From contig DYFC01000010.1 in assembly GCA_020725385.1 (NCBI GenBank), forward strand, positions 23,789 through 87,788: a DNA stretch of 64,000 nt, given 5' to 3'. Under the pieces are notes generated by a model. The model saw only the letters and a list, made by a program, of their open reading frames with translations. It searched no databases and was not told the origin of the DNA. Origin of the DNA: Nitrospira japonica. GTDB taxonomy: Bacteria > Nitrospirota > Thermodesulfovibrionia > Thermodesulfovibrionales > SM23-35. The translations under genes and the position numbers were made by a program. This document shows positions 2,786 to 46,222 of the stretch, in pieces. Positions within the stretch are counted from its first letter, which is position 1; the number at the start of each line of letters is the position of its first letter.

Positions 2786-5700
2786 TTATTGATTTCTAAC
2801 ACTAACAAAATCTGATAAACATGTAAAGAGTTTAAAGAGAATATTATACCTTTCCTCCCATGAACTTCCATCTGTATAAATCTCAAAACCATCGCTTAGA
2901 AATCTTATCTTTTTTCCAGCTTTATCTCTTAGTTTAAAAATATCTTCAGGTTGAACTTTTGTGTCATTTGAAAAATGTACACCTATTATGCCTTTTGCTT
3001 CGTTTATTTTCTTTATTAATAATCGTCCCGAAAATATCTTAAGATTCATTATATCAAGAAGGCATTTTACTTCAACAGGCATCTTACCGAAACGATCTTC
3101 TATTTCTGAAGCTATTGAATATAACACATCAGGAGATTTTGAAGCCGCAATTTTTCTGTATAAGCTCAATCTTATAGTTATATCTTCAACATAATCTTCT
3201 GGTATGAAAGCATTAACTTTCATATTTATAGTAGGCTCAAATTCTTCCTCGATCCTTTCACCTTTTAACTCTGCAACTTCTTTTTCGAGCATCTCCATAT
3301 AAAGATCAAATCCTACCGCATGGATATGTCCTGATTGTTCAGCTCCAAGAAGATTGCCCGAACCTCTTATCTCAAGGTCTTTTAATGCAAGTCTAAAGCC
3401 GGCCCCGAGATAACTCATTTCCTGTATTGCCTGAAGTCTTTTCTTTGATTCATTCGTGATAATATCTTCACCGGGAATTAGAAAATATGCATATGCGCGT
3501 AGATTGCCTCTTCCAACACGTCCTCTTAATTGATACAAATCCGCAAGTCCCATCATATCCGCTCTGTTTATTATTATTGTATTGGCCGATGGTATATCAA
3601 GCCCCGAACCTATTATTGCAGTTGAAACAAGCACATCAACTTTCTTCTCATAAAAGTTAAACATACCTTTTTCAAGTTCTTTTTCATTCATTTGGCCATG
3701 CGCTACCGCTATTTTGATGTTCGGTATTAAGTTCACAAGATAATCAGCGATTCTATATATATCCTTGATTCTGTTATGCACAAAAAAGACCTGACCTTTC
3801 CTATCCAGCTCATGCAAGATTGCATTCTTAATAATATCTTTATTGAAAACCGATACAATGCTTTTAACCGCAAGTCTTTCCTCAGGAGGGGTCTCAATGA
3901 TACTCATATCTCTAATATCCGAGAGAGCCATAGACAATGTCCTCGGTATAGGAGTTGCTGTCAATGTCAATACATCAACTCCTTTTTTTAGTTCTTTTAT
4001 TTTTTCTTTTTGTCTTACTCCGAATCTGTGTTCTTCATCTATTATCAGGAGTCCGAGATTATGAAATTTTATATTTTTCCCGAGTAATGCATGAGTTCCG
4101 ATGATAATATCAATATCTCCATTTTCAATCGCCTTTATAGTTTTTTTCTTATCACTTGTTGATTTGAACCTGCTTAAGAAATCTATATTAACTGGAAATC
4201 CAGAAAATCTTGCCCTGAATGTTCTGTAATGTTGTTCGCAAAGAATTGTTGTTGGAACGAGTACAGCTACCTGCATCCCGTCATATACTGCTTTGAAAGT
4301 AGCGCGGACAGCAACTTCTGTTTTCCCGTATCCTACGTCTCCGCAAATAAGTCTGTCCATTGGCCTGTCGGATTCCATATCTTTTTTTATATCCTCAATA
4401 GCCTTCAATTGATCCGGAGTCTCTTCATAGGGGAAAAAGCTATCGAACTCTCTATGTAATTCAGTGTCAGAACTAAAAGGATAACCTTTTTGAATTTTTC
4501 TTTGTGCATACAGAGCAAGGAGCTTTTCAGCCATATCGTGAATTTTTCTTTTCACCCTTTGTTTAGTTCTACTCCATGTTTTTCCGCCAAGTCTATCAAT
4601 TTTTGGAATTACACCTTCTTCTGCATGGTATTTTCTGATTTTGTTTATTGCATGAAGCGGAACATATAATCTTCCTCCATCATATTCAATTAGTATTAGA
4701 TCTTCTTTTATATCTTCTGTACTTTGCTGGATTAGTCCAATAAATTTTCCGATTCCATGGTCAGTATGTACGATGAAATCTCCCGGACGCAAATCATCAA
4801 GAGAAGTCAGTAGTCCGGAAACCTTTGATTTACGTAAAGGCCTGTAAGAAGGTCTCTCTCCAAAAAGTTCCTTTTCTGTCAGAATAAGAATTCCGGGAAG
4901 GAATAAGCCTGAAGAGAGACTGCCAATCACTACCATTATATTGCCTTTATAGGTAAAGACATCTTCTTTATCAATTAAAGGCGCAATTATATCACCTGCC
5001 CTAAGAATATCCCTAAGCCTTTCAGCCTGACCATTAGAGGATGAAACAAGGATTATCCGGTTTTCATCGAGTAACTTTTTTAGTTTAGACGGGAGTTCAT
5101 CAATGCTCTTTCGTTCCTGATGGGTTATACCGAGTCCTTTAATATTCAAGACACCCGAATCAATACCATCTCCTGCGATTGAAAATCTTGATAATATTAT
5201 TGAACTTTCAGGAATGTTTTCTTTTTCTTTAACTGAATCGAAAACAAACCAGATTTTATTTGAGAATGTCTCCAATAAATTTTTTCCGCCCGGAGACTCA
5301 ATTGCAGGGAAAAGATATAGGACCTTGATATTTTCTTTCGAACGCTGTGTATCTACGTCAAAGTATTTTATATTTTCAATTTCATCACCAAAAAACTCTA
5401 TTCTTACAGGGTCCTCAAAAGTTGATGGAAAAATATCTATAATCCAGTTACGTCTGCTGAATTCACCCTTTTCAGAGACAAGCGGTACACGGTTATAGCC
5501 AAGCTTTTGAAGTATATTTTCAAATTCATCTCTTTTTATTTCCAGACCTTTTTTAATAAATAATATACTTTTTTCTAATTCTTCTTTTGACCATATAGGT
5601 GAATTTAAATTGCCCGAAGAAAAAGTGAGGGAATCATTTTCGCTGGTTTTATAGATTATTTCTGCTCTTTGCCCTGAAATGCCCGGGCCATCAGGCTCGG

Positions 5701-5917
5701 GCAAGAAAAATACTTTATTTTTCTTTAGTGCGCTACGATAGAAATTTATGTCATCGCATAATTCTGTTGCAAGAGTCCCGTCGCCATCAACAGCGACAAA
5801 TGGTTCATTGCATATAGCAAGAAACAGGGCAGATGACGAGCCTATTAGATTGTATATTCTTGAAATTTCTATTTTTTTTCTTAAAATATCCTGAAAATAC
5901 GAAAGACTTATTTGCAT
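2786..5917 (-). CDS. mfd: transcription-repair coupling factor
   Basis: 1043 aa. Superfamily-2 helicase motifs (GDVGYGKTEVA, DEEHRFGV, LTLTATPIPRTL) and a TRCF-type C-terminal domain. Length is typical of Mfd. Confidence 0.9.
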   Translation of the reverse strand: MQISLSYFQDILRKKIEISRIYNLIGSSSALFLAICNEPFVAVDGDGTLATELCDDINFYRSALKKNKVFFLPEPDGPGISGQRAEIIYKTSENDSLTFSSGNLNSPIWSKEELEKSILFIKKGLEIKRDEFENILQKLGYNRVPLVSEKGEFSRRNWIIDIFPSTFEDPVRIEFFGDEIENIKYFDVDTQRSKENIKVLYLFPAIESPGGKNLLETFSNKIWFVFDSVKEKENIPESSIILSRFSIAGDGIDSGVLNIKGLGITHQERKSIDELPSKLKKLLDENRIILVSSSNGQAERLRDILRAGDIIAPLIDKEDVFTYKGNIMVVIGSLSSGLFLPGILILTEKELFGERPSYRPLRKSKVSGLLTSLDDLRPGDFIVHTDHGIGKFIGLIQQSTEDIKEDLILIEYDGGRLYVPLHAINKIRKYHAEEGVIPKIDRLGGKTWSRTKQRVKRKIHDMAEKLLALYAQRKIQKGYPFSSDTELHREFDSFFPYEETPDQLKAIEDIKKDMESDRPMDRLICGDVGYGKTEVAVRATFKAVYDGMQVAVLVPTTILCEQHYRTFRARFSGFPVNIDFLSRFKSTSDKKKTIKAIENGDIDIIIGTHALLGKNIKFHNLGLLIIDEEHRFGVRQKEKIKELKKGVDVLTLTATPIPRTLSMALSDIRDMSIIETPPEERLAVKSIVSVFNKDIIKNAILHELDRKGQVFFVHNRIKDIYRIADYLVNLIPNIKIAVAHGQMNEKELEKGMFNFYEKKVDVLVSTAIIGSGLDIPSANTIIINRADMMGLADLYQLRGRVGRGNLRAYAYFLIPGEDIITNESKKRLQAIQEMSYLGAGFRLALKDLEIRGSGNLLGAEQSGHIHAVGFDLYMEMLEKEVAELKGERIEEEFEPTINMKVNAFIPEDYVEDITIRLSLYRKIAASKSPDVLYSIASEIEDRFGKMPVEVKCLLDIMNLKIFSGRLLIKKINEAKGIIGVHFSNDTKVQPEDIFKLRDKAGKKIRFLSDGFEIYTDGSSWEERYNILFKLFTCLSDFVSVRNQ

Positions 5918-6003
5918 GAAAGAATAATTATTATGTTAAAATAAAAATCCATTATTAAATTATATCATTTTACCAATAGATAGAAGAAAGAAAGGAATTT
6001 ATC

Positions 6004-6879
6004 ATGAACAAAATTCTTCGAATCGGGCTGCCCAAAGGCAGTCTTCAAGAATCTACATTAAAACTCTTCAGAAAGGCCGGTTATCATATTTCTGTATCGA
6101 GCCGTTCATATTATCCATCATTTGATGATCCTGAAATTGAAGCAATGCTCATAAGAGCACAGGAAATGGCAGGTTATGTAGAAAATGGTATTATTGATTG
6201 TGGTCTTACCGGCAAGGACTGGATAATGGAACAGAACGCGGATGTCCATGAAGTAGCCGAGCTTATTTATGCTAAAGAAGGTTTAAGACCTGTAAGATGG
6301 GTTATAGCTGTTCCTAATGATTCAAAAATTAAGACCGTGAAAGACCTTAATGGTAAGAGGATAGCAACAGAATTGGTTGGATTTACAAAAAGGTATTTAA
6401 AGAAAAACGGGGTAACTGCTGAAGTTGATTTTTCATGGGGTGCAACAGAGGTAAAACCACCTCATCTTGCTGATGCTATTGTTGAACTTACAGAGACAGG
6501 AACTTCTTTGCGTGCAAATAATCTCAGAATAGTTGAGACAATTCTGGAGTCAAGCACCCGTTTTATATCAAACAAAAAAGCATGGCAGGATAAATGGAAA
6601 AAACAGAAAATGGAAAATATTGTAATGTTACTAAAAGGCGCTCTTGCCGCTGAAGAGAAAGTCGGGCTTAAGATGAATGTTGAGTCAAAATCAATTAAAC
6701 GCGTAATGAGTCTTCTTTCAGCAATGCACTCACCAACTATTTCTTCATTATCAGAAGAAGGCTGGTTTGCCCTTGAAGTTATAATTAACGAAAAAAGCGT
6801 TAGGGATATAATTCCTAAGCTCAAAATGGCCGGAGCTACAGGCATTGTAGAATATCCCCTTAACAAAGTAATACCTTAA
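6004..6879 (+). CDS. hisG: ATP phosphoribosyltransferase, long form
   Basis: 291 aa. The N-terminus [23 protein letters not shown] is typical of HisG, and a C-terminal regulatory domain is present. Confidence 0.85.
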
Positions 6880-6899
6880 ATTATTTGATAGGAGAAAAT

Positions 6900-7571
6900 A
6901 TGTTTAAGGATCACAGAAAATTGAATTATGATATTATCAGTCTTCTGATTTCCGGTGTATTTCTAATGTCTTTTACTTTCTGTCTTAACAAAACATCATA
7001 TGCTTTATCCCTGAACGATGAAGTTGCAAGAATTCAAAAGACTTATGAGAATATTATTGACATGAGCGGTAATTTTGTTCAGAAAAGCCATATAAAGGAT
7101 CTTAAGCGGACCGATACTTACAAAGGCCAGTTTTTCATTAAAAAACCCGAGAAAGTAAAAGTAATATACAAAGGAGAAAATCCTGCTGAAATAACTGTTA
7201 ATAAAGACATTGTATTAATCTATCAGAAAAATGAAAATCAGGTTATTAAGGGGAAATTCGATAGCAACACATATGGTCAAACACCTGTTATATTATTGAG
7301 CGGTCTGGGGAAGATGGAAGAAGAATTCAATATATCAGAAAAAAATGGTCTGTTGCTTTTAAAGCCTAAAAAAAGCATGGGAGCGATTGTCTCAATTGAA
7401 CTAAAGTTATCAGACAAAGAATTTCCGATACAGTCTTTTACAATTTATGACACATATTCAAATAGGACAGATATTACACTCAGCGATATGAAAATAAACA
7501 AAAACATTGATGATAAAATTTTCAACTTTACATCTCCTAAGAACGCAACAATTTTGGAACACAACCCATGA
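6900..7571 (+). CDS. LolA-like outer-membrane lipoprotein carrier family protein
   Basis: The ORF track starts at 6885, but the ATG at 6900 follows GGAGA. Signal peptide followed by a LolA-like pattern (F.Q......K....Y.G.F.IKKPEK..V.Y). Family call is by memory only. Confidence 0.55.
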   Translation: MFKDHRKLNYDIISLLISGVFLMSFTFCLNKTSYALSLNDEVARIQKTYENIIDMSGNFVQKSHIKDLKRTDTYKGQFFIKKPEKVKVIYKGENPAEITVNKDIVLIYQKNENQVIKGKFDSNTYGQTPVILLSGLGKMEEEFNISEKNGLLLLKPKKSMGAIVSIELKLSDKEFPIQSFTIYDTYSNRTDITLSDMKINKNIDDKIFNFTSPKNATILEHNP

Positions 7572-37600: not shown

Positions 37601-38233
37601 TTATAAACCATGCTGACTAATATAATTCGTAATTATAGAAATAACTTTTTCATAAACTCTATTATGTTCCAAGGATGCATCAACAATCTTTATTCTATCA
37701 GGTTCTTTTTCAGCAAGCGCAAGATACCCTGCTCGAACCTTTTTATGAAACTCTATATCTTCAAGCTCAAGTCTGTCAATCTTATTTATACCTTTATTTC
37801 TCATTAGCCCTATCTCTACATCAAGGTCAAGGAGAAACGTAATGTTAGGTCTTAAGTTATTTGTTGCAATTGAATCAATACTGTCAAGCAAATTTAGACT
37901 TATACCTCTTCCATAGCCCTGATAAGCATAGGTTGAATCAGTGAACCGGTCTGTAATAACAAAAGCACCACGATTCAATGCTGGCATAATTAGTTCATGA
38001 ATATGCTGAGCCCTTGCAGCATTGTATAGAAGAAGTTCTGTCACATGAGTCATATTTTTATTATCCAAGGAAAGAAGAATTTCACGTATTTTCAGGCTTA
38101 TAGGAGTCCCTCCAGGCTCTGCTGTAAGTACAGTTTCATATCCTTTTTCAGATAAATATTTTGAGAGTAAAGAAGCCTGGGTTGATTTCCCTGAGCCTTC
38201 AATTCCCTCAAAAGATATAAATATTCCTTTCAA
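37601..38233 (-). CDS. tmk: thymidylate kinase
   Basis: 210 aa. P-loop FEGIEGSGKST and the DRF motif (ITDRFTDS). Confidence 0.95.
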   Translation of the reverse strand: MKGIFISFEGIEGSGKSTQASLLSKYLSEKGYETVLTAEPGGTPISLKIREILLSLDNKNMTHVTELLLYNAARAQHIHELIMPALNRGAFVITDRFTDSTYAYQGYGRGISLNLLDSIDSIATNNLRPNITFLLDLDVEIGLMRNKGINKIDRLELEDIEFHKKVRAGYLALAEKEPDRIKIVDASLEHNRVYEKVISIITNYISQHGL

Positions 38234-38265
38234 TTATTGTCCTTTCTTCAATATTTTTTAAAAAC

Positions 38266-38404
38266 CAGCAGCAATTCACGGTGAAAGAAGGCAAGATTCT
38301 TCAGTCGCTTATACTCCTTTGGAATGACAAGGGGAACCCCTTCAATGTCATTCCGGGCAAAGAGAGGAATCTCAAAGCTTTACAAAATCACCATGAATTG
38401 CTCG
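38266..38404. repeat. MITE-like intergenic repeat, copy R5 (inverted relative to R2/R4)
   Basis: CAGCAGCAATTCACGGTGAAAGAAGGCAAGATTCTTCAGTCGCTTATACTCCTTTGGAATGACAA...GTCATTCCGGGCAAAGAGAGGAATCTCAAAGCTTTACAAAATCACCATGAATTGCTCG. The termini are GCAATTCACGGTG and CACCATGAATTGC. Confidence 0.8.
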
Positions 38405-38603
38405 AAAATCATTTAACTACCGAATAATTCACATTTATTATGTTAACCTAAAAATTCAAACATTTCTCAAAATTTATTTGACCCGATGATTATATTTTAG
38501 CTTAAAGATTATAAATCTATGGCTTTGCAGAGGCTAACTTTAATTTTTTCATAAAAACACAGTTGCACAAATAATCTTTAAAATGTTATTTTATTTACTC
38601 TAT

Positions 38604-38678
38604 AGGCGCGTAGCTCAGTGGGAGAGCGCTTCCTTGACGCGGAAGAGGCCAAGGGTTCAATCCCCTTCGCGCCTACCA
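38604..38678 (+). tRNA. tRNA-Val (anticodon GAC), CCA encoded
   Basis: AGGCGCGTAGCTCAGTGGGAGAGCGCTTCCTTGACGCGGAAGAGGCCAAGGGTTCAATCCCCTTCGCGCCTACCA. The cloverleaf folds by hand, with anticodon loop TTGACGC. Confidence 0.9.
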
Positions 38679-38689
38679 TTTAATAGATA

Positions 38690-39367
38690 TCAATGTACTT
38701 TATTTAAGAATTTCTCAATTATATCAGCATCTTCATTACTTATATCCGTAAATTTTATTCCATAGTAATTCATTTCCTCATTTTCTTTTTTCTCAAGAGT
38801 CCTTACAATTTCGGCTTCTACTGATATCTTTCTCGATTCAGGGATGCTTAAATTACACAAAATTAAGTCTCCTTCTGAAAGCAAAGCTTTCGTATTTATT
38901 AACATACCCGATGTGCTTATATTCTCTGTATATGCTATAATACTTTTTCTTCTAAAATTACCTTCAATTTTTAATTTAACAGGTATTCTGCATGATTTTC
39001 TTTGTGCAATATTAAGAAGCTGGTGCATCTCTTGAAGCAAAATTGCACTATTTATAGGGTATGTTAAGAATGTATTTGCCTGACATTTTAAGCAACGCTG
39101 GCGGTGTAATTTTGTGTTTGAGCATAAAATAATAATAGATACTTTATTTAGCTCTTTATCATTTCGTATGAGGGAGCAAAGTGTTTCTCCGCTCATACTT
39201 TTGGAGTCAAGATACGTGACTATGAGATCTGCTTTTTCAGTTTTATGTATTAAGAGAACATGCTTATTTGATAAAGATATATATTTTTTTATATCTTCTC
39301 TATCAAGGAAACTCTGTTCTTTTTCGAGTTCCTTATTTATTTTTTTATCAATAATAATTTTTTTCAT
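38690..39367 (-). CDS. receiver-like domain + PilZ (c-di-GMP-binding) protein
   Basis: PilZ motifs RKSCR (RxxxR) and NISTSG (D/NxSxxG). The N-terminal half has a CheY-like pattern. The likely start is MKKIIID at 39367, although the ORF track extends to 39433. Confidence 0.7.
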   Translation of the reverse strand: MKKIIIDKKINKELEKEQSFLDREDIKKYISLSNKHVLLIHKTEKADLIVTYLDSKSMSGETLCSLIRNDKELNKVSIIILCSNTKLHRQRCLKCQANTFLTYPINSAILLQEMHQLLNIAQRKSCRIPVKLKIEGNFRRKSIIAYTENISTSGMLINTKALLSEGDLILCNLSIPESRKISVEAEIVRTLEKKENEEMNYYGIKFTDISNEDADIIEKFLNKVH

Positions 39368-39486
39368 CTGGCTTTTATACCAGTATATATTATCAGTCCT
39401 TAAGAGTAAAGTACCAAAGAGAGCAAAAAGCATAGATTAGTTTTCTACTTGGGAAGTAACTATTAAAGTATTTGAAAGGAAATTAT

Positions 39487-40725
39487 ATGAAAAAAAGTTA
39501 TGCAACAAATGATAAACATATTGTTATAAATGAAAGATCTTTAGTTGCTGTAGAATTTACTATTGAATGGAAAAGTTTTTATGCCTGCCATACTGACTGC
39601 TTCTATACAAGGAATCTTAATTTATGGAGAGATTTACTTCCAGAAAATATTCACAAATCACTTATAGGTAAATATTCGGAGCTGACACTTAATTTTCAGT
39701 GTAATGAATTTTTCAAATTCTGCGAATTCGATGATAATTTGCTTTTTGAGATAAACCAGAAGCAATTTGATAGAAAATGTTTTTTCCCTCTTGAAATTGT
39801 TCCACAATCAGGCAGATTTTACCCTAAAGGAATTTTAAAAGGTCTCCAAAACATATTCAAAGGAAATCAGGAACCTTTTAGATGTGTTAGTTACGATGAA
39901 TCAAACATTATTGTTGACTTTAATCATCCGCTCTCGGGATTGCACCCAAAACTTTCTATGTTTATTCATGAGATTAGAACTAAATCAGGTGAAACAGGGG
40001 GAGAATGTACAGATTGGATCGAAACAATCATTAACGGTCCAGGAATGCAGGCTCGCTGGAATGAAACTCCAACAGATTTTTTCAAAGACAATCCTTTTTC
40101 AAGAACCGATGAAAATAACGATACGCTTTTTTACGAAAAACCTCGTTTTACATCACATGTAGATAAAAAAGCCCGGTCAATAATTTCAGGGATATATGGA
40201 AATATCTTAAAAGACGGAATGAAAGTTCTTGACCTTATGAGTAGCTGGCAATCCCACGTGCCGGGGCATGTTGAACTCGATTCTTTGATAGGAATCGGGT
40301 TGAACAAAGAAGAGATGGAATTAAACTTTCAACTTAATGAACATATTGTCTATGATTTAAATCGAACCCCTGTTTTGCCTTTTAGAGACTCTGAATTTGA
40401 TTCTGTCATCTGCTCATTATCAATTGAATATCTAACAAAACCATTCGAAATTTTTAAGGAAATTGCAAGGATTTTGAAACCGGGTGGATATTTTATTACA
40501 ACATTTTCTAATAGATGGTTTCCGCCTAAGGTTATAAGAATATGGACAGAACTTTATGAGTTTGAACGAATGGGACTTGTTCTTGAATATTTCATAAGAA
40601 CCGGTAAATTCAAAAATCTTCATACTTATTCAATGAGAGGACTTCCCAGAGCATGGGATGACAAATATTTCCCTGAGTTCCCTCTATCAGACCCTATATA
40701 TGCAGTATGGGGAATGAGAGGTTAA
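39487..40725 (+). CDS. fusion of an FKBP/SlyD-like N-terminal domain with a class I SAM-dependent methyltransferase
   Basis: The C-terminal half has VLDLMSSWQSHVP ... DSVICSLSIEYL ... ILKPGGYFITTF (Methyltransf_11-like). The N-terminal ~175 aa end in IIVDFNHPLSGLHPKLSMFIHEIR, reminiscent of the FKBP/SlyD (D)xNHPLAG motif. The ATG at 39487 is preferred over the track start at 39472. Confidence 0.6.
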   Translation: MKKSYATNDKHIVINERSLVAVEFTIEWKSFYACHTDCFYTRNLNLWRDLLPENIHKSLIGKYSELTLNFQCNEFFKFCEFDDNLLFEINQKQFDRKCFFPLEIVPQSGRFYPKGILKGLQNIFKGNQEPFRCVSYDESNIIVDFNHPLSGLHPKLSMFIHEIRTKSGETGGECTDWIETIINGPGMQARWNETPTDFFKDNPFSRTDENNDTLFYEKPRFTSHVDKKARSIISGIYGNILKDGMKVLDLMSSWQSHVPGHVELDSLIGIGLNKEEMELNFQLNEHIVYDLNRTPVLPFRDSEFDSVICSLSIEYLTKPFEIFKEIARILKPGGYFITTFSNRWFPPKVIRIWTELYEFERMGLVLEYFIRTGKFKNLHTYSMRGLPRAWDDKYFPEFPLSDPIYAVWGMRG

Positions 40726-40739
40726 TGTACATATCTTAT

Positions 40740-41465
40740 CTATTCAATGCGCACGAATTTTTCTTTTGCAACCATCCGGATAAGATTCTCTGATGCAGCC
40801 TCAAGACTAATCTTGTCAAGGGATTCCATGGTAACCATCACAGAATATTCCAGATTATCGAGTACAGGATAGGAACCTATCTTAACGGTCTTAAATCTTT
40901 TCACAATATCATTAAGCAAAGGAGCAACTGTTGATTCTGATTCATTAAGATATATCTTTTTTAAATGTACAACAGGTTCATTGAAAAGCTTTTCTATTGC
41001 AAAGAATTTTTTTCTTAGAAGCTGGGGAATACCCGGAAGAATATAAACGTTTAAAAACTTTATTAAAGGGAAAGTTAAGTTATTGTCATTTATAAGTTCA
41101 GCACCTTCAGGAACTTCAGCCATTTTGAGTTGTTCTGGAGATAATTTGCCTAATTTCAACTCGAGAAATGCTTTTAGAGTTGGATCTATCACTGTTCTAA
41201 CATTGAAAGCTCTAGAAATGCCTTCTATTGTTACGTCATCATGAGTAGGACCGATTCCACCTGATGTGAAGACAAAATCGTATTTTTTTGAGAATTCTCT
41301 CACCTCATTTGCAATTTCATCTACATTATCCGGAATTATAGAAATACGGCTTAACTGAATTCCGTGAGCCCATAATTCCTGAGCCATAAAAAAGGAATTG
41401 TAGTCCTGAACCTTTCCTGTGAGTATCTCGTCTCCGATTATTATTATGCCTGCTGTTTTAGCCAT
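40740..41465 (-). CDS. MoaB/Mog/CinA-N-type molybdopterin-binding-fold protein
   Basis: 241 aa with IIIIGDEILTGKVQDYN and TSGGIGPTHDDVT. Confidence 0.7.
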   Translation of the reverse strand: MAKTAGIIIIGDEILTGKVQDYNSFFMAQELWAHGIQLSRISIIPDNVDEIANEVREFSKKYDFVFTSGGIGPTHDDVTIEGISRAFNVRTVIDPTLKAFLELKLGKLSPEQLKMAEVPEGAELINDNNLTFPLIKFLNVYILPGIPQLLRKKFFAIEKLFNEPVVHLKKIYLNESESTVAPLLNDIVKRFKTVKIGSYPVLDNLEYSVMVTMESLDKISLEAASENLIRMVAKEKFVRIE

Positions 41466-41525: not shown

Positions 41526-41559
41526 ATAAAAAAGGCAGGATTTGGGATTACCCTGCCTT
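41526..41559 (-). terminator. intrinsic terminator after the Cys/Asp-repeat protein gene
   Basis: The minus strand reads AAGGCAGG-GTAATCCCAAAT-CCTGCCTT followed by TTTTTTAT. It starts 24 nt after the stop at 41583. Confidence 0.7.
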
Positions 41560-41582
41560 CAAAGAATTTTATTATTTTTAAC

Positions 41583-42800
41583 TTATGCTTTTTGCTTCTT
41601 TTTCAAATAAAAAATTGCACCTATCCCGGCAATAAGCATAAAGATAAGCATTCCCCATTCTGTCATTGTTGGTATACTTAAAGGATTATTTAAAGGGTCT
41701 TGACAGGTACCATAGTGTATTGGTGTTGGTAATTCTTCTCCCGGAGGAACAGGTGTCTGGGATGTATCAACAGTGCCTGTTTGATTTGTAGCGAATACTA
41801 ATGCTCCACCTGCATTCCATGCACTCGTACGCAAGTCAATATTTCCGATTGCATTAAAAGTTCCGCTTCCCTGTAAACTCATTGCTCCAAATACAACAAC
41901 TTCCTGACTTGTTGCAACTGTCAATTGTCCGGTAGTTGTTATCGCTACATTATAAGGTATAAAAAAGCAAGAAAAGGCACAGATTCCTTCAAATGAAGTG
42001 CCTGGTGGAAGTTCATATGTCCCATCGTTATTATAATCTCTTAATTCTGGATCACCTGCACATGAATTATCGCAGTTTGTATCAGCTTCAAGGACACCAT
42101 CATTGTCACAGTCTCTCAGAAACGGGCCAACATTCATAGGAGTTAGCATATTATTACCTGTACTAAAAGAAGGGACTGGATTAAAGATAGCATCTCGAGC
42201 ATCAATAACTGTTGCAGCATGTGAGTAATCGAAGGCAAGTCCAATAAAAATAGCAATGGTACAGAATCTGTATAACATCTGTAGTGCTTTGTTTAAACCT
42301 GCTTTTGCAAATTCTCTTCTGGTTGTCTGATCATTCATTACTCCCTCACCTGAACCACATCCTTCACAAGGAGGATTGTCGCCAGAACATGTATCAGACC
42401 CTGTACAATTATCAGTTGCACATACATCTGAGTATGTACACCCAGTAGTAACATCAATACGGCAAAGATCAATATTACAGCTTCCGGACTTATCCAAAGT
42501 ACATATATCAGTATTACAGAATGGGCTTTGTTGATTTTGAATATCAAGTTTACATTTATCAATTCCGCATGCATTCGTTATGTCAACCTGGCATGAATCC
42601 GCAGTAGTACAATAATCTTTACCACTACAGGTATCTGAAACAGTACATAAATCAGGATTACAACCATTAACAGCATAAGCATTTGTAGAAAACATTGTTG
42701 CATTAATTTTTCTCAGAGGCGGAAGTTCGGATACAACACCAATGGCTACCATTCCCCCTGTAACTCTATACAACCATCTCAAAAATTCCCTCCTTCTCAT
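41583..42800 (-). CDS. Tat-signal-like, C-x(2,3)-D tandem-repeat protein with internal second signal-like segment and IPTL-CTERM-type anchor (candidate radical-SAM substrate)
   Basis: 405 aa. It starts MRRREFLRW. Residues 47-148 contain 18 Cys arranged as CNPDLCTVSDTCSGKDYCTTADSCQVD...CTGSDTCSGDNPPCEGC. Residues 159-195 read TTRREFAKAG...IAIFIGLAFDYSHA. The C-terminus is IPTMTEWGMLIFMLIAGIGAIFYLKKKQKA. Confidence 0.75.
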   Translation of the reverse strand: MRRREFLRWLYRVTGGMVAIGVVSELPPLRKINATMFSTNAYAVNGCNPDLCTVSDTCSGKDYCTTADSCQVDITNACGIDKCKLDIQNQQSPFCNTDICTLDKSGSCNIDLCRIDVTTGCTYSDVCATDNCTGSDTCSGDNPPCEGCGSGEGVMNDQTTRREFAKAGLNKALQMLYRFCTIAIFIGLAFDYSHAATVIDARDAIFNPVPSFSTGNNMLTPMNVGPFLRDCDNDGVLEADTNCDNSCAGDPELRDYNNDGTYELPPGTSFEGICAFSCFFIPYNVAITTTGQLTVATSQEVVVFGAMSLQGSGTFNAIGNIDLRTSAWNAGGALVFATNQTGTVDTSQTPVPPGEELPTPIHYGTCQDPLNNPLSIPTMTEWGMLIFMLIAGIGAIFYLKKKQKA

Positions 42801-42803
42801 TAA

Positions 42804-44282
42804 CTATCCTCCTTTCTTATCTGCTATGAGATAAGGTTGTGTTGTTTCTTCATAAATATCACTTAAAATATCTTTATCGCTTACATTCAATTCTGAATTT
42901 ATAGCCATCGCACATTCTACCTGATGTTTAATTATTTTGCAACTCTTCTCACATGGAATTTCTATCGAATCATTAGTCATTAAAGCATGATGCCAGCATC
43001 CTCCACCACAAAAATATCTTACCCAGCAATCCTTGCAAGGTTGACGATTGTCTACTGATAGATTAAGTATTTTCTCCTGAAGTCTTAAATCCAGACCATT
43101 TTCAATATCACCCATCCGGTAATCTTCCATACCTACAAAACGATGACAGGGATAAAATCCACCATCTTGTGACAATGCAAAATAAGTTCTAAAAGCCCCG
43201 CAGAAATAAGGACTGCGGTCTCTTACAATCCTTGTCATTCTAATAAACCTTACTAAATTTGTATAATTAAAATATCTGTTTTGTCTAACGCTATCAACTA
43301 AATAAAGGGCAACTGTTTCAATCTGTTTTTTTATTTCCTCAATGTCTTCATCTGTTACTGTTAATTCTCCTGCTCCGGCAACAGATGGTTCGGTATGAAC
43401 TGAACCAAACCCAAGCGAAAGAAGATGGTCTACAACAAGTGGTATATTAACTGTTCCTCTTGGGATTGTAACTCTTGCAGGAACTCTATCAGGTCTTGCA
43501 GAGATAAGACGCTTTATTCCAGAAACGACAAGATCATATGAGCCTTTACCGTTAGGTAATATTCTGTTCAAATTATGTATTTCTTTTGGTCCATCTATTG
43601 ATATTTGACAACCAATATTGTTTTTAACAACAAAATCTACTACTTCGTCATTAAGAAGGATTCCATTGGTAACAAGAGACATACTAACTTTCTTTTCCAT
43701 CTCTTTTTCCTTCTCTCTAACATAAGAAACTATTTCTTTTATGAGTCTAAATTCAAGGAGAGGTTCTCCCCCAAAGAAAATCAGACTTAAATCTTTATGC
43801 TTTCCTGAATTATTAAAAAGAAAATCAACACCCTTCTTTGCTATATCAATTGACATGCTTTTTCTTTTCGCACCATATAAATAAGGCTGTTGCTCCCATT
43901 CCTGCATTCCGTGCGAGCCATAGCAGTAACGGCATCTCATATTGCAGTCATGTGTAACCATAAGTTCAAGATGCCTTAATCCATAGCGCTTTTTTAGTGG
44001 CGGAAGATCCCGAAAATCATTATCATTATTATCAAATATAAACTTTTCTTTTTTTAAATATTTCAAAACTTCTTTTATTTCCCATTTTGGATATTTATCC
44101 TTTAAGGCTCTTAAGGGGTCAGCTTTATTATTTTTTTCAAGAAGCTTTACTATTTCACAAACCAGGGGAGTTACTTCATAGAAAAGCATTGTTTTGACAT
44201 TGAATAGGATATTCTTACCTAAACGATTGAAAAGGTAGTGTTCAACAATCTTATATTCAGTCTGTTTATTAAAGATACCCAT
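42804..44282 (-). CDS. radical SAM/SPASM-domain maturase with N-terminal RRE-like extension
   Basis: Radical-SAM cluster motif HDCNMRCRYCYG, and a SPASM signature (FCGAF...DGGFYPC ... CKDCWVRYFCGGGC ... C). The ~95-110-aa N-terminal extension is consistent with a RiPP recognition element (RRE). The likely start is MGIFNKQ at 44282, because the ORF-track start at 44330 runs into a RayT remnant. Confidence 0.85.
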   Translation of the reverse strand: MGIFNKQTEYKIVEHYLFNRLGKNILFNVKTMLFYEVTPLVCEIVKLLEKNNKADPLRALKDKYPKWEIKEVLKYLKKEKFIFDNNDNDFRDLPPLKKRYGLRHLELMVTHDCNMRCRYCYGSHGMQEWEQQPYLYGAKRKSMSIDIAKKGVDFLFNNSGKHKDLSLIFFGGEPLLEFRLIKEIVSYVREKEKEMEKKVSMSLVTNGILLNDEVVDFVVKNNIGCQISIDGPKEIHNLNRILPNGKGSYDLVVSGIKRLISARPDRVPARVTIPRGTVNIPLVVDHLLSLGFGSVHTEPSVAGAGELTVTDEDIEEIKKQIETVALYLVDSVRQNRYFNYTNLVRFIRMTRIVRDRSPYFCGAFRTYFALSQDGGFYPCHRFVGMEDYRMGDIENGLDLRLQEKILNLSVDNRQPCKDCWVRYFCGGGCWHHALMTNDSIEIPCEKSCKIIKHQVECAMAINSELNVSDKDILSDIYEETTQPYLIADKKGG

Positions 44283-44301
44283 ATTCTTCAGGTTGAAATA
44301 T

Positions 44302-44330
44302 AATATAGCTATTTGACCTAACAAATTCAA
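44302..44330 (-). promoter_or_regulatory. candidate sigma-70 promoter for the radical-SAM operon
   Basis: The minus strand reads TTGAAT-17 nt-TATATT (-35 at 44330-44325, -10 at 44307-44302), about 20 nt upstream of the ATG at 44282. Such matches are common by chance in AT-rich DNA. Confidence 0.3.
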
Positions 44331-44640
44331 TTAAATAAATCAAGCAGGGGCAATTCATGAATTGCCCCTGCACAATCCGTTTCAATACATATAATTCCAT
44401 GAATATGGTTAGGCATAATTATATATTCATCCAGTTCAATATCCGGAAATTGAACTGGAATTTCTATCCAATATTGTTGGGCAATTATCCCATACTCATT
44501 TAACTTCATCCTACTATTAATCACGTCCCCAAATAAATAATCCTTATTTTTGTGCATATTGGAATGAAATACGCTCCTGATTGTGAATAATTATAACCTT
44601 TCAGCCGTATTGATTTTCTTTTATGAATATCTGGATTATA
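44327..44640 (-). pseudogene. truncated, frameshifted RayT / IS200-like Y1 transposase remnant
   Basis: Nucleotide-level homology to 49179-49480. The 76-aa ORF retains ...MPNHIHGIICIE..GAIHELPL but lacks the C-terminal ~90 aa. The N-terminal ~30 codons (44558-44640) are out of frame. Homology stops at the palindrome at 44344-44371. Confidence 0.8.
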
Positions 44641-44851: not shown

Positions 44852-45073
44852 CTATTTCAAAAAGTCTATGAATTCATCTACAGTCAGTTTAGATTGTTCA
44901 ATAATGCTATACAGTGTTCCTTTTTTTAAATCCCGTGAATGAACAGGAATAGTTACTCGCAAAGAGCCTTTTTTAAAAATCTTATGACTGCCTTTTTGTC
45001 TATGCTCTACAAAACCTGCCCTTTGAAGCGCCTTTATAACATCGCTGCTTTTAAGCGCTGGCAATCTGCTCAT
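44852..45073 (-). CDS. hicA: HicA-family mRNA interferase toxin
   Basis: 73 aa: LPALKSSDVIKALQRAGFVEHRQKGSHKIF. Confidence 0.85.
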   Translation of the reverse strand: MSRLPALKSSDVIKALQRAGFVEHRQKGSHKIFKKGSLRVTIPVHSRDLKKGTLYSIIEQSKLTVDEFIDFLK

Positions 45074-45293
45074 ATGGGGATTCCACTTCTACAATAAGAT
45101 GGTCTTCTTCCGGAATTGGAAGGCCATCGGCTTGCAGACTCTCAAGGTAAAGCGCTATGGCCTCTTTAATATTCGCCAATGCCTCGTCATAAGTATCACC
45201 TTCAGATATACAGCCTGGCAAAGAAGGAACCGTTGCGGTATAGCCGCCTTCTTCCTGTGGCTCAAATATAACCTTATAATATTTTTTTGCCAT
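45051..45293 (-). CDS. hicB: HicB-family antitoxin
   Basis: 80 aa: YKVIFEPQEEGGYTATVPSLPGCISEGDTYDEALANIKEAIALYLE. It overlaps hicA. Confidence 0.85.
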   Translation of the reverse strand: MAKKYYKVIFEPQEEGGYTATVPSLPGCISEGDTYDEALANIKEAIALYLESLQADGLPIPEEDHLIVEVESPYEQIASA

Positions 45294-45555: not shown

Positions 45556-46008
45556 TCAAGATTTGAACATTAATAATTCATCAAGCAATTCGTTAGAAAC
45601 ATAAAAACCCTTATCTTTAAGTTCTTGAGCCTTTTTAAAAGCGCTCTCTATAAGTCCAAGTTTTTCGGCTTTTAACAAAACACCAATACTACCACTAATA
45701 GACAATCCTAAATCTTCTGCAACCTTTCGAGCTTTTAAATCATCAATTAATGCTCTAAAATTAGTCTCATAGGCAAGGGCTATAACCTCAGATTCACCTC
45801 TTCCTAAGTTTAAATTACGCATTAAGACATTGATTAATCTGCTTTCAACCTTTCGCACTAATAAGCAATCAATATTGATTTCGCCAAATTCTTTGACCAC
45901 AGCATCAGGCAAAATAATCTCCTTATAGATTTTACAGAGAATTTGTAAGAGATCAATTCGTTCGAAGGCTATTAAAACAGAGGCATCAACAATGACTGCT
46001 TCAGGCAT
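45556..46008 (-). CDS. DUF3368/PIN-like nuclease-fold toxin
   Basis: The likely start is MPEAVIVDASVLIAF, overlapping the antitoxin stop by 8 nt. It pairs with a UPF0175 protein as in the known DUF3368/UPF0175 modules. Confidence 0.7.
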   Translation of the reverse strand: MPEAVIVDASVLIAFERIDLLQILCKIYKEIILPDAVVKEFGEINIDCLLVRKVESRLINVLMRNLNLGRGESEVIALAYETNFRALIDDLKARKVAEDLGLSISGSIGVLLKAEKLGLIESAFKKAQELKDKGFYVSNELLDELLMFKS

Positions 46009-46222
46009 TCGATAGTTCTTTCTCAAGATTCAGTTTTTGAAACTTTATTGGAGCTATCCCCTTATGCAGCAATATCTCAACAAATGCCTTTTCAGAATAC
46101 CCGGCTATCTCAGATGCTTTACCAAGAGATATTAAATCTTCGTCAAGAAGCTTTATGGCAAGCAATAGTTTTAATTCTTCTTCCGGTATATTTAGCTCAG
46201 GTATAGTTAGTGATTTGCCCAT
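46001..46222 (-). CDS. UPF0175-family antitoxin
   Basis: 73 aa: EELKLLLAIKLLDEDLISLGKASEIAGYSEKAFVEILLHKGI. Confidence 0.7.
   Translation of the reverse strand: MGKSLTIPELNIPEEELKLLLAIKLLDEDLISLGKASEIAGYSEKAFVEILLHKGIAPIKFQKLNLEKELSNA

Follow-up and report, generated by a model that had tools for sequence, protein, structure and literature searches.

Closest described systems

In the polyproteins of flaviviruses and hepatitis C virus, internal signals translocate the downstream part, signal peptidase cuts behind them, and signal-peptide peptidase clears the remnant so that the upstream protein is released. A bacterial relative of this principle is the cytochrome b/c1 polyprotein FbcH of Bradyrhizobium japonicum, which Thony-Meyer and colleagues are said to have described in PNAS in 1991: one open reading frame (ORF) reportedly gives two proteins through a signal peptidase cut after an internal signal-peptide-like segment, the halves being separate genes in other species. 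Here, we consider a 64,000-nt stretch of Nitrospira japonica DNA (contig DYFC01000010.1 of assembly GCA_020725385.1, positions 23,789 to 87,788; in the following the window), which carries the gene of a 405-aa precursor protein directly downstream of a gene for a radical S-adenosylmethionine (SAM)/SPASM maturase. The description that fits this precursor best is that of two fused modules whose seam carries a conserved Sec-type signal peptide inside the chain, a variant of the rare bacterial polyprotein theme within an undescribed radical-SAM system.

Since viral polyproteins belong to the eukaryotic endoplasmic reticulum, their likeness to the window precursor is one of logic only. FbcH is closer, in that one ORF covers two proteins which are joined by an internal signal-like segment and whose halves are separate in some species. 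However, the upstream part of FbcH is a polytopic membrane protein ending in the cytoplasm, whereas here it is a soluble Cys/Asp array, the presumed substrate of the radical-SAM enzyme, with a leader of the twin-arginine translocation (Tat) type, and cleavage is predicted. Because this array carries its own N-terminal Tat-type leader, an export problem arises that is absent from FbcH. To our knowledge, only few bacterial precedents exist for a Tat-type leader combined with an internal Sec-type signal, and their occurrence in one conserved protein poses a topological puzzle. No paper linking radical-SAM precursors with twin-arginine leaders was found in the literature.

Regarding the modification, the thioether systems PapA/PapB, SCIFF/ScfB and QhpC/QhpD come closest to the enzyme-substrate pair. 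The adjacent enzyme scores best against these thioether-forming SPASM maturases, and its presumed substrate is a Cys/Asp repeat array resembling the Cys-X3-Asp motifs cross-linked by PapB (PapA/PapB freyrasin; PMC9413430, PMC10739248). Unlike in any of the three, these scores remain below cut-off, and the substrate, instead of being a short leader-core peptide, comprises 400-700 aa, with a leader of the Tat type and an exported domain attached to it; its chemistry is presumed from sequence. A further point of comparison is offered by dual Sec/Tat-targeted proteins such as Sco3746 and the actinobacterial Rieske protein Sco2149 (Tooke et al. 2017, PMC5449189), which likewise have an internal RR upstream of a hydrophobic segment preceding an extracytoplasmic globular domain. 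There, however, an even number of Sec-inserted transmembrane domains (TMDs) precedes a weakly hydrophobic Tat-dependent TMD with basic residues after it, while in the window protein no TMD but only a leader precedes a strongly hydrophobic core with AxA site, and the RR fails the Tat motif (see below).

Conservation and architecture of the precursor

A word-seeded search yielded 36 homologues of the precursor, an exhaustive hidden Markov model search with the C-module profile against 1.84 billion (1.84e9) cluster representatives gave 48 hits, and genome and metagenome scans added 27 further loci from metagenome-assembled genomes (MAGs) of Brocadiaceae, Thermodesulfovibrionales, Desulfatiglandales, Syntrophorhabdus, Syntrophobacter, Desulfobacteraceae, Desulfovibrio and a betaproteobacterium. 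The family is rare at 48 hits in 1.84 billion representatives, yet spread over anaerobic lineages; about 50 homologues from several of these, among them every complete one, keep the internal segment, nearly always within one ORF, and in most loci an orthologous radical-SAM gene lies directly upstream. Throughout, the architecture is constant. An RRxFL leader with LxRIN and an AxA site is followed by a Cys/Asp(-Ser-Gly) array of variable length, a seam reading 'C.LDLALN..(RR)xFAxAGLNxAIxWLYxL', a hydrophobic run of 12-13 residues and 'G.S.A↓ATVIDA' (the arrow marks the cleavage site), and then by a conserved domain of ~180 aa and either a variable C-terminal anchor or extra Ig-like domains.

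A preliminary description of the window had placed Met155, an RR-x-F motif and an SHA↓A site in the middle of the 405-aa ORF (41583..42800, minus strand, stop codon included), and all residues and bases that it named are indeed present. The ORF is composed of the following features (SD, Shine-Dalgarno; AF2, AlphaFold2; TM, transmembrane):

42672..42800, minus strand: N-terminal Tat-type leader, residues 1-43 (MRRREFLRWLYRVTGGMVAIGVVSELPPLRKINATMFSTNAYA, cut before V)
42357..42662, minus strand: Cys/Asp repeat array, residues ~47-148, with invariant C and D columns; presumed maturase substrate
42339..42356, minus strand: hypervariable Gly/Glu linker G149-V154, the codons of which spell the SD-like AGGTGAGGGAG (42351-42341)
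42336..42338, minus strand: M155 codon, a conserved hydrophobic position; a role as start codon is unsupported
42267..42326, minus strand: tail of the array module, basic and amphipathic, T159-R178 (TTRREFAKAGLNKALQMLYR), helical in AF2; the array gene ends here in split loci
42231..42266, minus strand: hydrophobic core (h-region), F179-F190 (FCTIAIFIGLAF)
42216..42230, minus strand: c-region D191-A195 (DYSHA), with a predicted signal peptidase I cut after A195, between 42216 and 42215
41685..42215, minus strand: C-module, A196 to ~P372, a beta-rich solenoid-like domain from ATVIDA
41586..41675, minus strand: C-terminal sorting/anchor signal, consisting of IPTMTEW, a TM helix and KKKQKA

Across the segment in question, positions 42338-42267 (minus strand) encode MNDQTTRREFAKAGLNKALQMLYR and positions 42266-42216 FCTIAIFIGLAFDYSHA, followed by ATVIDA. 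R161-R162-E-F is present, and the uncharged hydrophobic run from F179 to F190 comprises 12 residues instead of the ~15 initially assumed, followed by D-Y-S-H-A195↓A196-TVIDA.

For residues 155-374, AF2 (27 homologues) gave a model with a predicted local distance difference test score (pLDDT) of 87.9, in which a single continuous 29-residue helix (161-189) is followed by a hinge below 50 at about 191-194, in the c-region, and by a confident beta-rich domain from T197 (C-module pLDDT ~90 or higher). The full-length model shows the same helix, hinge and domain plus a C-terminal helix (381-404), with pLDDT <50 across the Cys/Asp array (model residues 14-160) despite its invariant Cys and Asp columns, as would fit an array structured only through cross-links or metal ions. 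Foldseek against the PDB gave nothing significant for the C-module, merely weak beta-solenoid or ice-binding-like similarities, and no Pfam or NCBIfam family was found for the 405-aa protein apart from a sub-threshold IPTL-CTERM-like C-terminus. The latter has the IPTL-CTERM shape (IPTM, TM helix, KKK) and several homologues carry a precomputed PF18203 assignment, but the window protein reaches only 11.9-13.9 bits versus cut-offs of 20.5 and 20.8 (TIGR04174/PF18203).

Split orthologues locate the seam

A search of orthologous loci for split genes, as suggested in the preliminary description, identified three in which the two halves are separate genes (L022, L023 and L024), which establishes a gene-fusion ('Rosetta stone') relationship. 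The array gene of such loci stops just after '...RRxF..GLNxALxWLYxx', and the product of the C-domain gene has an N-terminal signal peptide to itself, the cleavage site of which lies immediately ahead of '(A/E)TVIDA'. On the 4.29-Mb contig of L022, the radical-SAM gene (3398-4837) is followed by gene A (4854-5948) for a protein of 364 aa, which starts with MIRREFLNWL, continues with the array and ends in ...GTRRDFVRQGINKALRALYQIG (tail also given as ...RRDFVRQGINKALRALYQIG); TAA TAA, a 52-nt spacer with the SD sequence aggaaggataaagag and an ATG then lead to gene B (6001-6954; P0053), which opens with MRGFIFISLAALLFCAPFAPVQA↓ETVIDAHNAVF. L023 comprises a radical-SAM gene, two tandem array genes ending in ...GLNRALRWLYHVEGDLPC and ...GLNRALRWLYRVERGLPC, each of whose stops overlaps the next start (GGAAGGGGATCTGCCATGCTGA), and a gene B for 806 aa (P0066) opening with MLRRSWLYGLSLLFIFAASPSYA↓EGNERIVIDL. 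The order differs in L024, where gene B (P0070; with its own RRRR signal and a C-terminal TM helix) precedes the radical-SAM gene and a gene A ending in ...TLARARDALAWLYGKA (tail also given as ...ARDALAWLYGKA). The third of the stand-alone module-B signals reads ..ALPASVAA↓AIDL. All split regions are free of N runs and have proper stops, starts and SD sequences, and their radical-SAM genes share 45-55% identity with that of the window over the full length.

The hydrophobic core of the window protein aligns with the N-terminal signal-peptide h-regions of stand-alone P0053, P0066 and P0070, and the AxA sites of these signal peptides align with SHA↓A. Because the split loci divide the ORF between 'LYxx' and the hydrophobic core, the seam is placed at R178/F179, ~24 residues downstream of M155. 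By this assignment, the RR-containing helix is the C-terminal tail of the array module (module A), and the hydrophobic core together with AxA is the signal peptide of the C-domain module (module B).

In a rough neighbour-joining tree, P0053 falls among fused proteins, while P0066 and P0070 belong to a divergent group that includes fused members. A search for stand-alone array proteins with the L022 gene A protein returned fused proteins only, matched over 100% of its length. Since the split L022 pair nests among fused relatives, the fused form, which prevails, is probably the older one, with occasional fission at the same seam. The idea of a fusion of two genes is largely supported, in that orthologous loci with separate genes exist, the seam lying ~24 residues past M155. 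The natural split and fused variants represent ready constructs for studying internal signal-peptide processing in bacteria and could also reveal how radical-SAM-modified proteins reach the cell envelope.

Several other apparent splits were rejected: that of L010 is an artefact of an N run inside the array, L016 is a radical-SAM/C-domain chimera, and L021 and L018 show frame problems in high-GC MAGs. The apparently stand-alone P0057/L025 has a mis-called TTG start, its upstream frame running on into the array, and P0018, P0019, P0033, P0035 and P0041 are incomplete or located at contig edges.

Sec- or Tat-type nature of the internal signal

TatP places the twin arginines of Tat signals at the n/h border, covers 97% of its training signals with the regular expression RR.[FGAVML][LITMVF], and describes Tat h-regions as less hydrophobic than Sec ones (PMC1182353). 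Measured against this, the two signals of the family differ clearly. RR is present in 35/37 N-terminal leaders, all 35 of which pass the expression; of the internal segments, 35/48 have RR (lost in 13/48), but only 2/48 pass and 46/48 fail, including the window motif RREFA, which fails at the last position. The median gap between RR and uncharged run is 8 residues in the leaders versus 16 in the internal segments, where Lys/Arg intervene. In the window these 16 residues include K166, K171 and R178, so that RR does not lie at the n/h border. Likewise, the best 10-residue Kyte-Doolittle (KD) hydropathy is 1.65±0.27 for the leaders (n=33) and 2.55±0.31 for the internal segments (n=45), whose cores of 12-13 uncharged residues are strongly hydrophobic family-wide and in the Sec range.

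The internal segment shows the tripartite organisation of a Sec/signal peptidase I substrate, with a positively charged n-region containing K166, K171 and R178, the core FCTIAIFIGLAF, which lies within the 7-15 residues typical of such cores, and the polar c-region DYS(-3)HA(-1)↓A; Ala occupies position -1 in 37/45 homologues, and S/A/V/G occupies position -3 in 37/45. It is not N-terminal, as a Sec signal commonly would be, but internal in the window protein and in the ~50 fused homologues; solely in P0053, P0066 and P0070, which stem from split loci, does the equivalent segment stand at the N-terminus. Based on the failure of the regular expression, the distance between RR and core, the high KD value and the conserved -1/-3 positions, the internal signal is judged to be of the Sec type, its conserved basic n-region being longer than usual, and the N-terminal one to be of the Tat type. 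The 'complete second Tat-type signal' of the preliminary description could hence not be upheld. Its concern that orthologues might lack the internal RR/hydrophobic segment proved unfounded as well, since the segment is conserved family-wide and no product of chance, and the RR is kept at the frequency given above.

The array proteins of split loci L022 and L024 likewise retain RR in their tails, where no hydrophobic core comes after it, so that Tat targeting of module B cannot explain its conservation. In hhalign, leader and internal segment are locally similar (LRWLYRVTGGMVAIGVVS vs LQMLYRFCTIAIFIGLAF; P 3e-6, probability 88%), and in global mode the two RRxF motifs were aligned with each other over an insertion of 8 residues. 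A common origin of the two is suggested by this, bearing in mind that hydrophobic segments inflate such scores.

The internal Tat-dependent TMDs of dual-targeted proteins have low hydrophobicity and positive charges after them (PMC5449189). The window protein departs from this type, with only a weakly hydrophobic leader upstream, a high core KD value and net acidic residues (DYSHAATVIDARDA) after the core. As read from the sequence, basic residues precede the core and acidic ones follow it, while KKKQKA stands after the C-terminal TM helix. An N-in/C-out orientation of the internal core is thus expected, as only this orientation satisfies the positive-inside rule at both segments.

The SD-like sequence upstream of M155

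In the preliminary description, a strong SD sequence before M155 was taken as a sign of internal initiation. The pairing as such is real. Energies of pairing with the anti-SD sequence were calculated for the -20..-4 region of 361 internal in-frame ATGs from 53 long ORFs of the window, and the SD-like GGTGAGGGAG, within the bases ...tcAGGTGAGGGAGta (42351-42341) 5' of the M155 codon (42338-42336, minus strand), is complementary at proper spacing and ranks 4th of 361 with -7.8 kcal/mol. From this rank, a few such sites are to be expected per 64 kb; the true start of the precursor reaches -11.6 kcal/mol.

Among the four closest homologues with available DNA (L001-L004; 66-78% BLASTP identity, 68-81% in the alignment), AAAGGAGG(GTGAT) is retained at the true start. 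Ahead of the Met, in contrast, these homologues read acggaaaaaaatgca, ctggagatgttgta, aggtgaatgtgatgca and gtgaagtagaagca, with energies of -3.5, -6.4, -3.8 and -1.9 kcal/mol; L001 and L004 lack the SD-like string, whereas L002 and L003 have it in a displaced or weak form. With L026 and L027 included, it is again absent or displaced. Moreover, the Gly/Glu/Cys linker before M155 is the most indel-rich and least conserved stretch among the five closest homologues. Met-Asn at position 155 is invariant only within this close clade, most other members having Leu/Phe-Asn within the conserved 'C.LDLALN', and the aligned codon is usually no start codon.

The combination of SD and ATG is hence at chance level and coincidental, GGTGAGGGAG arising from the Gly/Glu codons that happen to encode a variable linker. 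Initiation inside the ORF at M155 is unlikely because the SD is not conserved, Met155 is Leu/Phe elsewhere, and M155 lies off the seam. M175 (MLYRF...), considered as an alternative internal start, has no SD, and its apparent stand-alone homologue is the mis-called P0057.

A two-module precursor and its alternatives

Residues ~159-195 are best explained, with a probability of roughly 0.55, as the seam of a two-module, polyprotein-like precursor from which signal peptidase would yield two polypeptides. Module A would comprise the Tat-type leader, the Cys/Asp array, cross-linked in the cytoplasm by the radical-SAM/SPASM enzyme, and the tail RRxFAxxGLNxALxxLY; module B would comprise a Sec-type signal peptide (FCTIAIFIGLAF plus DYSHA↓A), the beta-rich domain and the membrane or sorting anchor at the C-terminus. 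With both modules fused, the tail of A would serve the signal core of B as its positively charged n-region. Once the array has been made and is accessible to the cytoplasmic radical-SAM enzyme, the internal signal would insert co-translationally, N-in/C-out. Module B would then be translocated and held by its C-terminal anchor (an out-to-in helix with KKKQKA inside), and signal peptidase I would cut after A195, so that one ORF gives two polypeptides by proteolysis and without a second translation start. More speculatively, the membrane remnant could be cleared within the short h-region, giving an A-like protein ending near 'LY', and the freed module A, equal to the split gene-A product, could leave through Tat by means of its N-terminal leader. 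Such a scheme would jointly fit the N-terminal Tat-type leader, the conserved internal signal with its cleavage site, the way in which the C-terminal anchor is oriented, and the existence of split orthologues, and is the only one of this kind we found. A cut at SHA↓A had already been among the options of the preliminary description, and it has become the best-supported mechanism, the site being equivalent to the cleavage sites of stand-alone C-modules; the order assumed there, with cleavage after export of the N-module, misfits the topology. What is at stake is the mature radical-SAM product, which would be either one tethered 43-kDa protein or a free cross-linked array plus an anchored beta-rich surface protein.

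A more far-reaching version, which we offer tentatively and consider less likely than not, is a bacterial polyprotein with two export routes, in which the internal Sec-type signal first translocates and releases the surface domain and the thioether-stapled array, freed once the signal remnant is cleared, is then exported folded via Tat. The RR-amphipathic tail would here be a second functional element, for instance a follower peptide for docking of the maturase or a partner, flanking the array together with the leader.

Several points weigh against the two-module explanation. The conservation of 'AA' at -1/+1 could partly belong to the N-terminal motif of the domain itself, and the n-regions of two out of three stand-alone module-B proteins themselves contain RR or RRRR, which makes a Tat route for B conceivable. 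A Tat leader on an array retained in the cytoplasm would need an extra step, namely remnant clearance prior to Tat export. The RR kept in 35/48 internal segments and in the L022 and L024 tails points to a function of its own. Finally, cleavage, topology and export route are all predicted from sequence features.

Among the alternatives, an uncleaved signal-anchor TM helix would leave the protein in one piece, with leader, array and tail in the cytoplasm, the beta-rich domain outside, and the RR leader serving for maturase recognition only. The continuous 29-residue helix of the AF2 model (161-189) and a charge distribution compatible with N-in agree with such an anchor, as does the highly conserved LxRIN of the leader, which resembles a recognition element of RiPPs (peptides made on ribosomes and modified after translation) more than a plain signal. 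We nevertheless regard it as rather unlikely, given that the uncharged core is just 12-13 residues long, that a conserved helix-breaking G/P/S-rich c-region with AxA follows, and that the equivalent segment of split genes is an N-terminal signal peptide. Besides, a Tat-regex-positive leader is the sole membrane segment of module A in split loci, and the array is for this reason probably exported there. A genuine internal twin-arginine signal, handing module B to Tat as in dual Sec/Tat-targeted membrane proteins, could account for RR-x-F in the window, for RR in 35/48 homologues and in the n-regions of two of three stand-alone module-B proteins, and for the local hhalign similarity to the leader (P 3e-6). 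It is improbable in view of the failing motif (2/48 internal segments versus 35/37 leaders), the 16 residues, some of them basic, between RR and core, and the RR retained in the coreless tails of the split L022 and L024 array proteins. In addition, the signal of P0053 is plainly Sec-type, and the highly hydrophobic core of the window protein, with no basic 'Sec-avoidance' residues after it, is the opposite of the TMDs in PMC5449189.

Two further explanations are very unlikely. One of them, initiation at M155 giving a separate 251-aa secreted protein beside the full-length one, could draw on the well-spaced pairing of -7.8 kcal/mol, which places it among the top ~1% of internal ATGs, and on the invariant Met-Asn of the five closest homologues. 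Pairing is stronger, however, at three other internal ATGs of these 64 kb; closest relatives keep AAAGGAGG(GTGAT) at the true start but not the internal SD-like string, M155 aligns with Leu/Phe of 'LDLALN', mostly no start codon, and the true seam of split loci lies ~24 codons downstream. We give this explanation a very small chance, and an equally slight one to the view that the segment is a functionless fusion scar in a protein which passes as a whole through Tat via its leader and is tail-anchored by its C-terminal helix. A Tat-type leader plus a C-terminal TM helix with basic tail does correspond to the architecture of Tat-dependent tail-anchored proteins (the topic of PMC10924467). A scar would be expected to decay, yet at an overall identity of ~40%, n/h/c organisation and AxA are maintained between lineages as far apart as Brocadiaceae, Thermodesulfovibrionales and several orders of deltaproteobacteria, and it is implausible that a helix of 12 strongly hydrophobic residues should lie open to the periplasm.

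Maturase gene and genomic surroundings

Around the precursor ORF, the following elements were located:

42804..44330, minus strand: radical-SAM/SPASM maturase gene, directly upstream of the precursor ORF; putatively of the thioether-forming SCIFF/PapB/QhpD clade
41531..41560, minus strand: terminator-like hairpin closing the two-gene operon
44344-44371, minus strand: second hairpin, 5' of the radical-SAM gene, inside a 76-aa ORF

The families against which the maturase scores best are the thioether-forming SCIFF, PapB, nif11-type and QhpD maturases (NCBIfam: rSAM_six_Cys 2e-90, PapB 8e-88, QhpD 4e-75), each match lying below its curated cut-off; versus the SCIFF, PapB and QhpD equivalog cut-offs of 425, 340 and 453, it reaches 303.9, 294.8 and 253.1. 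By these scores it would be placed in the SCIFF/PapB/QhpD clade, yet as a family of its own. In Pfam, Radical_SAM is found, while the SPASM match is sub-threshold (17.4 bits vs a cut-off of 21.5). Orthologues of the enzyme adjoin homologous precursors in 14/17 genome loci and in 3/3 split loci. A near-invariant 'PPLRKIN(T)xLF' block occupies leader residues 25-38, between h-region and AxA site; being conserved far beyond what a signal-peptide c-region needs, it may be a maturase recognition element.

Within the window, terminator-like hairpins flank the gene pair and none was seen between the two protein modules; promoter-like matches inside the precursor ORF scored no higher than shuffled controls and thus gave no internal promoter. 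One tandem arrangement was noted at L007 (6833-10921, plus strand), in which one radical-SAM gene is followed by two precursor genes, the first copy being frameshifted in the assembly.

The C-termini of the family vary. Those of P0016, P0017, P0021, P0023-P0027, P0033 and P0035 end in a short conserved tail, 'CGRIDWGLFLPLI[LK]R(AP)' or 'CGPQTLWLPLILRAP', in place of the IPTL-CTERM-like anchor, possibly a different, undescribed C-terminal sorting signal, and other homologues carry TIG/Ig-like or CARDB C-terminal extensions. Two genes downstream of the split system of L024, an exosortase (EpsH) homologue is encoded (5991-6497, plus strand; 30.7 bits, above cut-off), the predicted function of which fits C-terminal sorting of the C-module.

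The 76-aa ORF (44327-44557, minus strand) abuts the start of the radical-SAM gene. Its HUH-like motif 'MPNHIHGII' recalls a fragment of a RAYT/IS200-type transposase, though Pfam gave no match. Two pairs resembling toxin-antitoxin systems lie a short way upstream of the operon, namely HicA (E 1.8e-19) and a HicB-like antitoxin at 44852-45293 (minus strand) and a DUF3368/PIN-like ORF overlapping a UPF0175 ORF at 45556-46222 (minus strand). Downstream of the precursor (37601-41465), the gene order of MoCF/FLAD1-like protein, methyltransferase, receiver-PilZ protein and thymidylate kinase is kept in the closest relative L002/L026 (FWWM01025214.1), and the window has a tRNA at 38604-38675.

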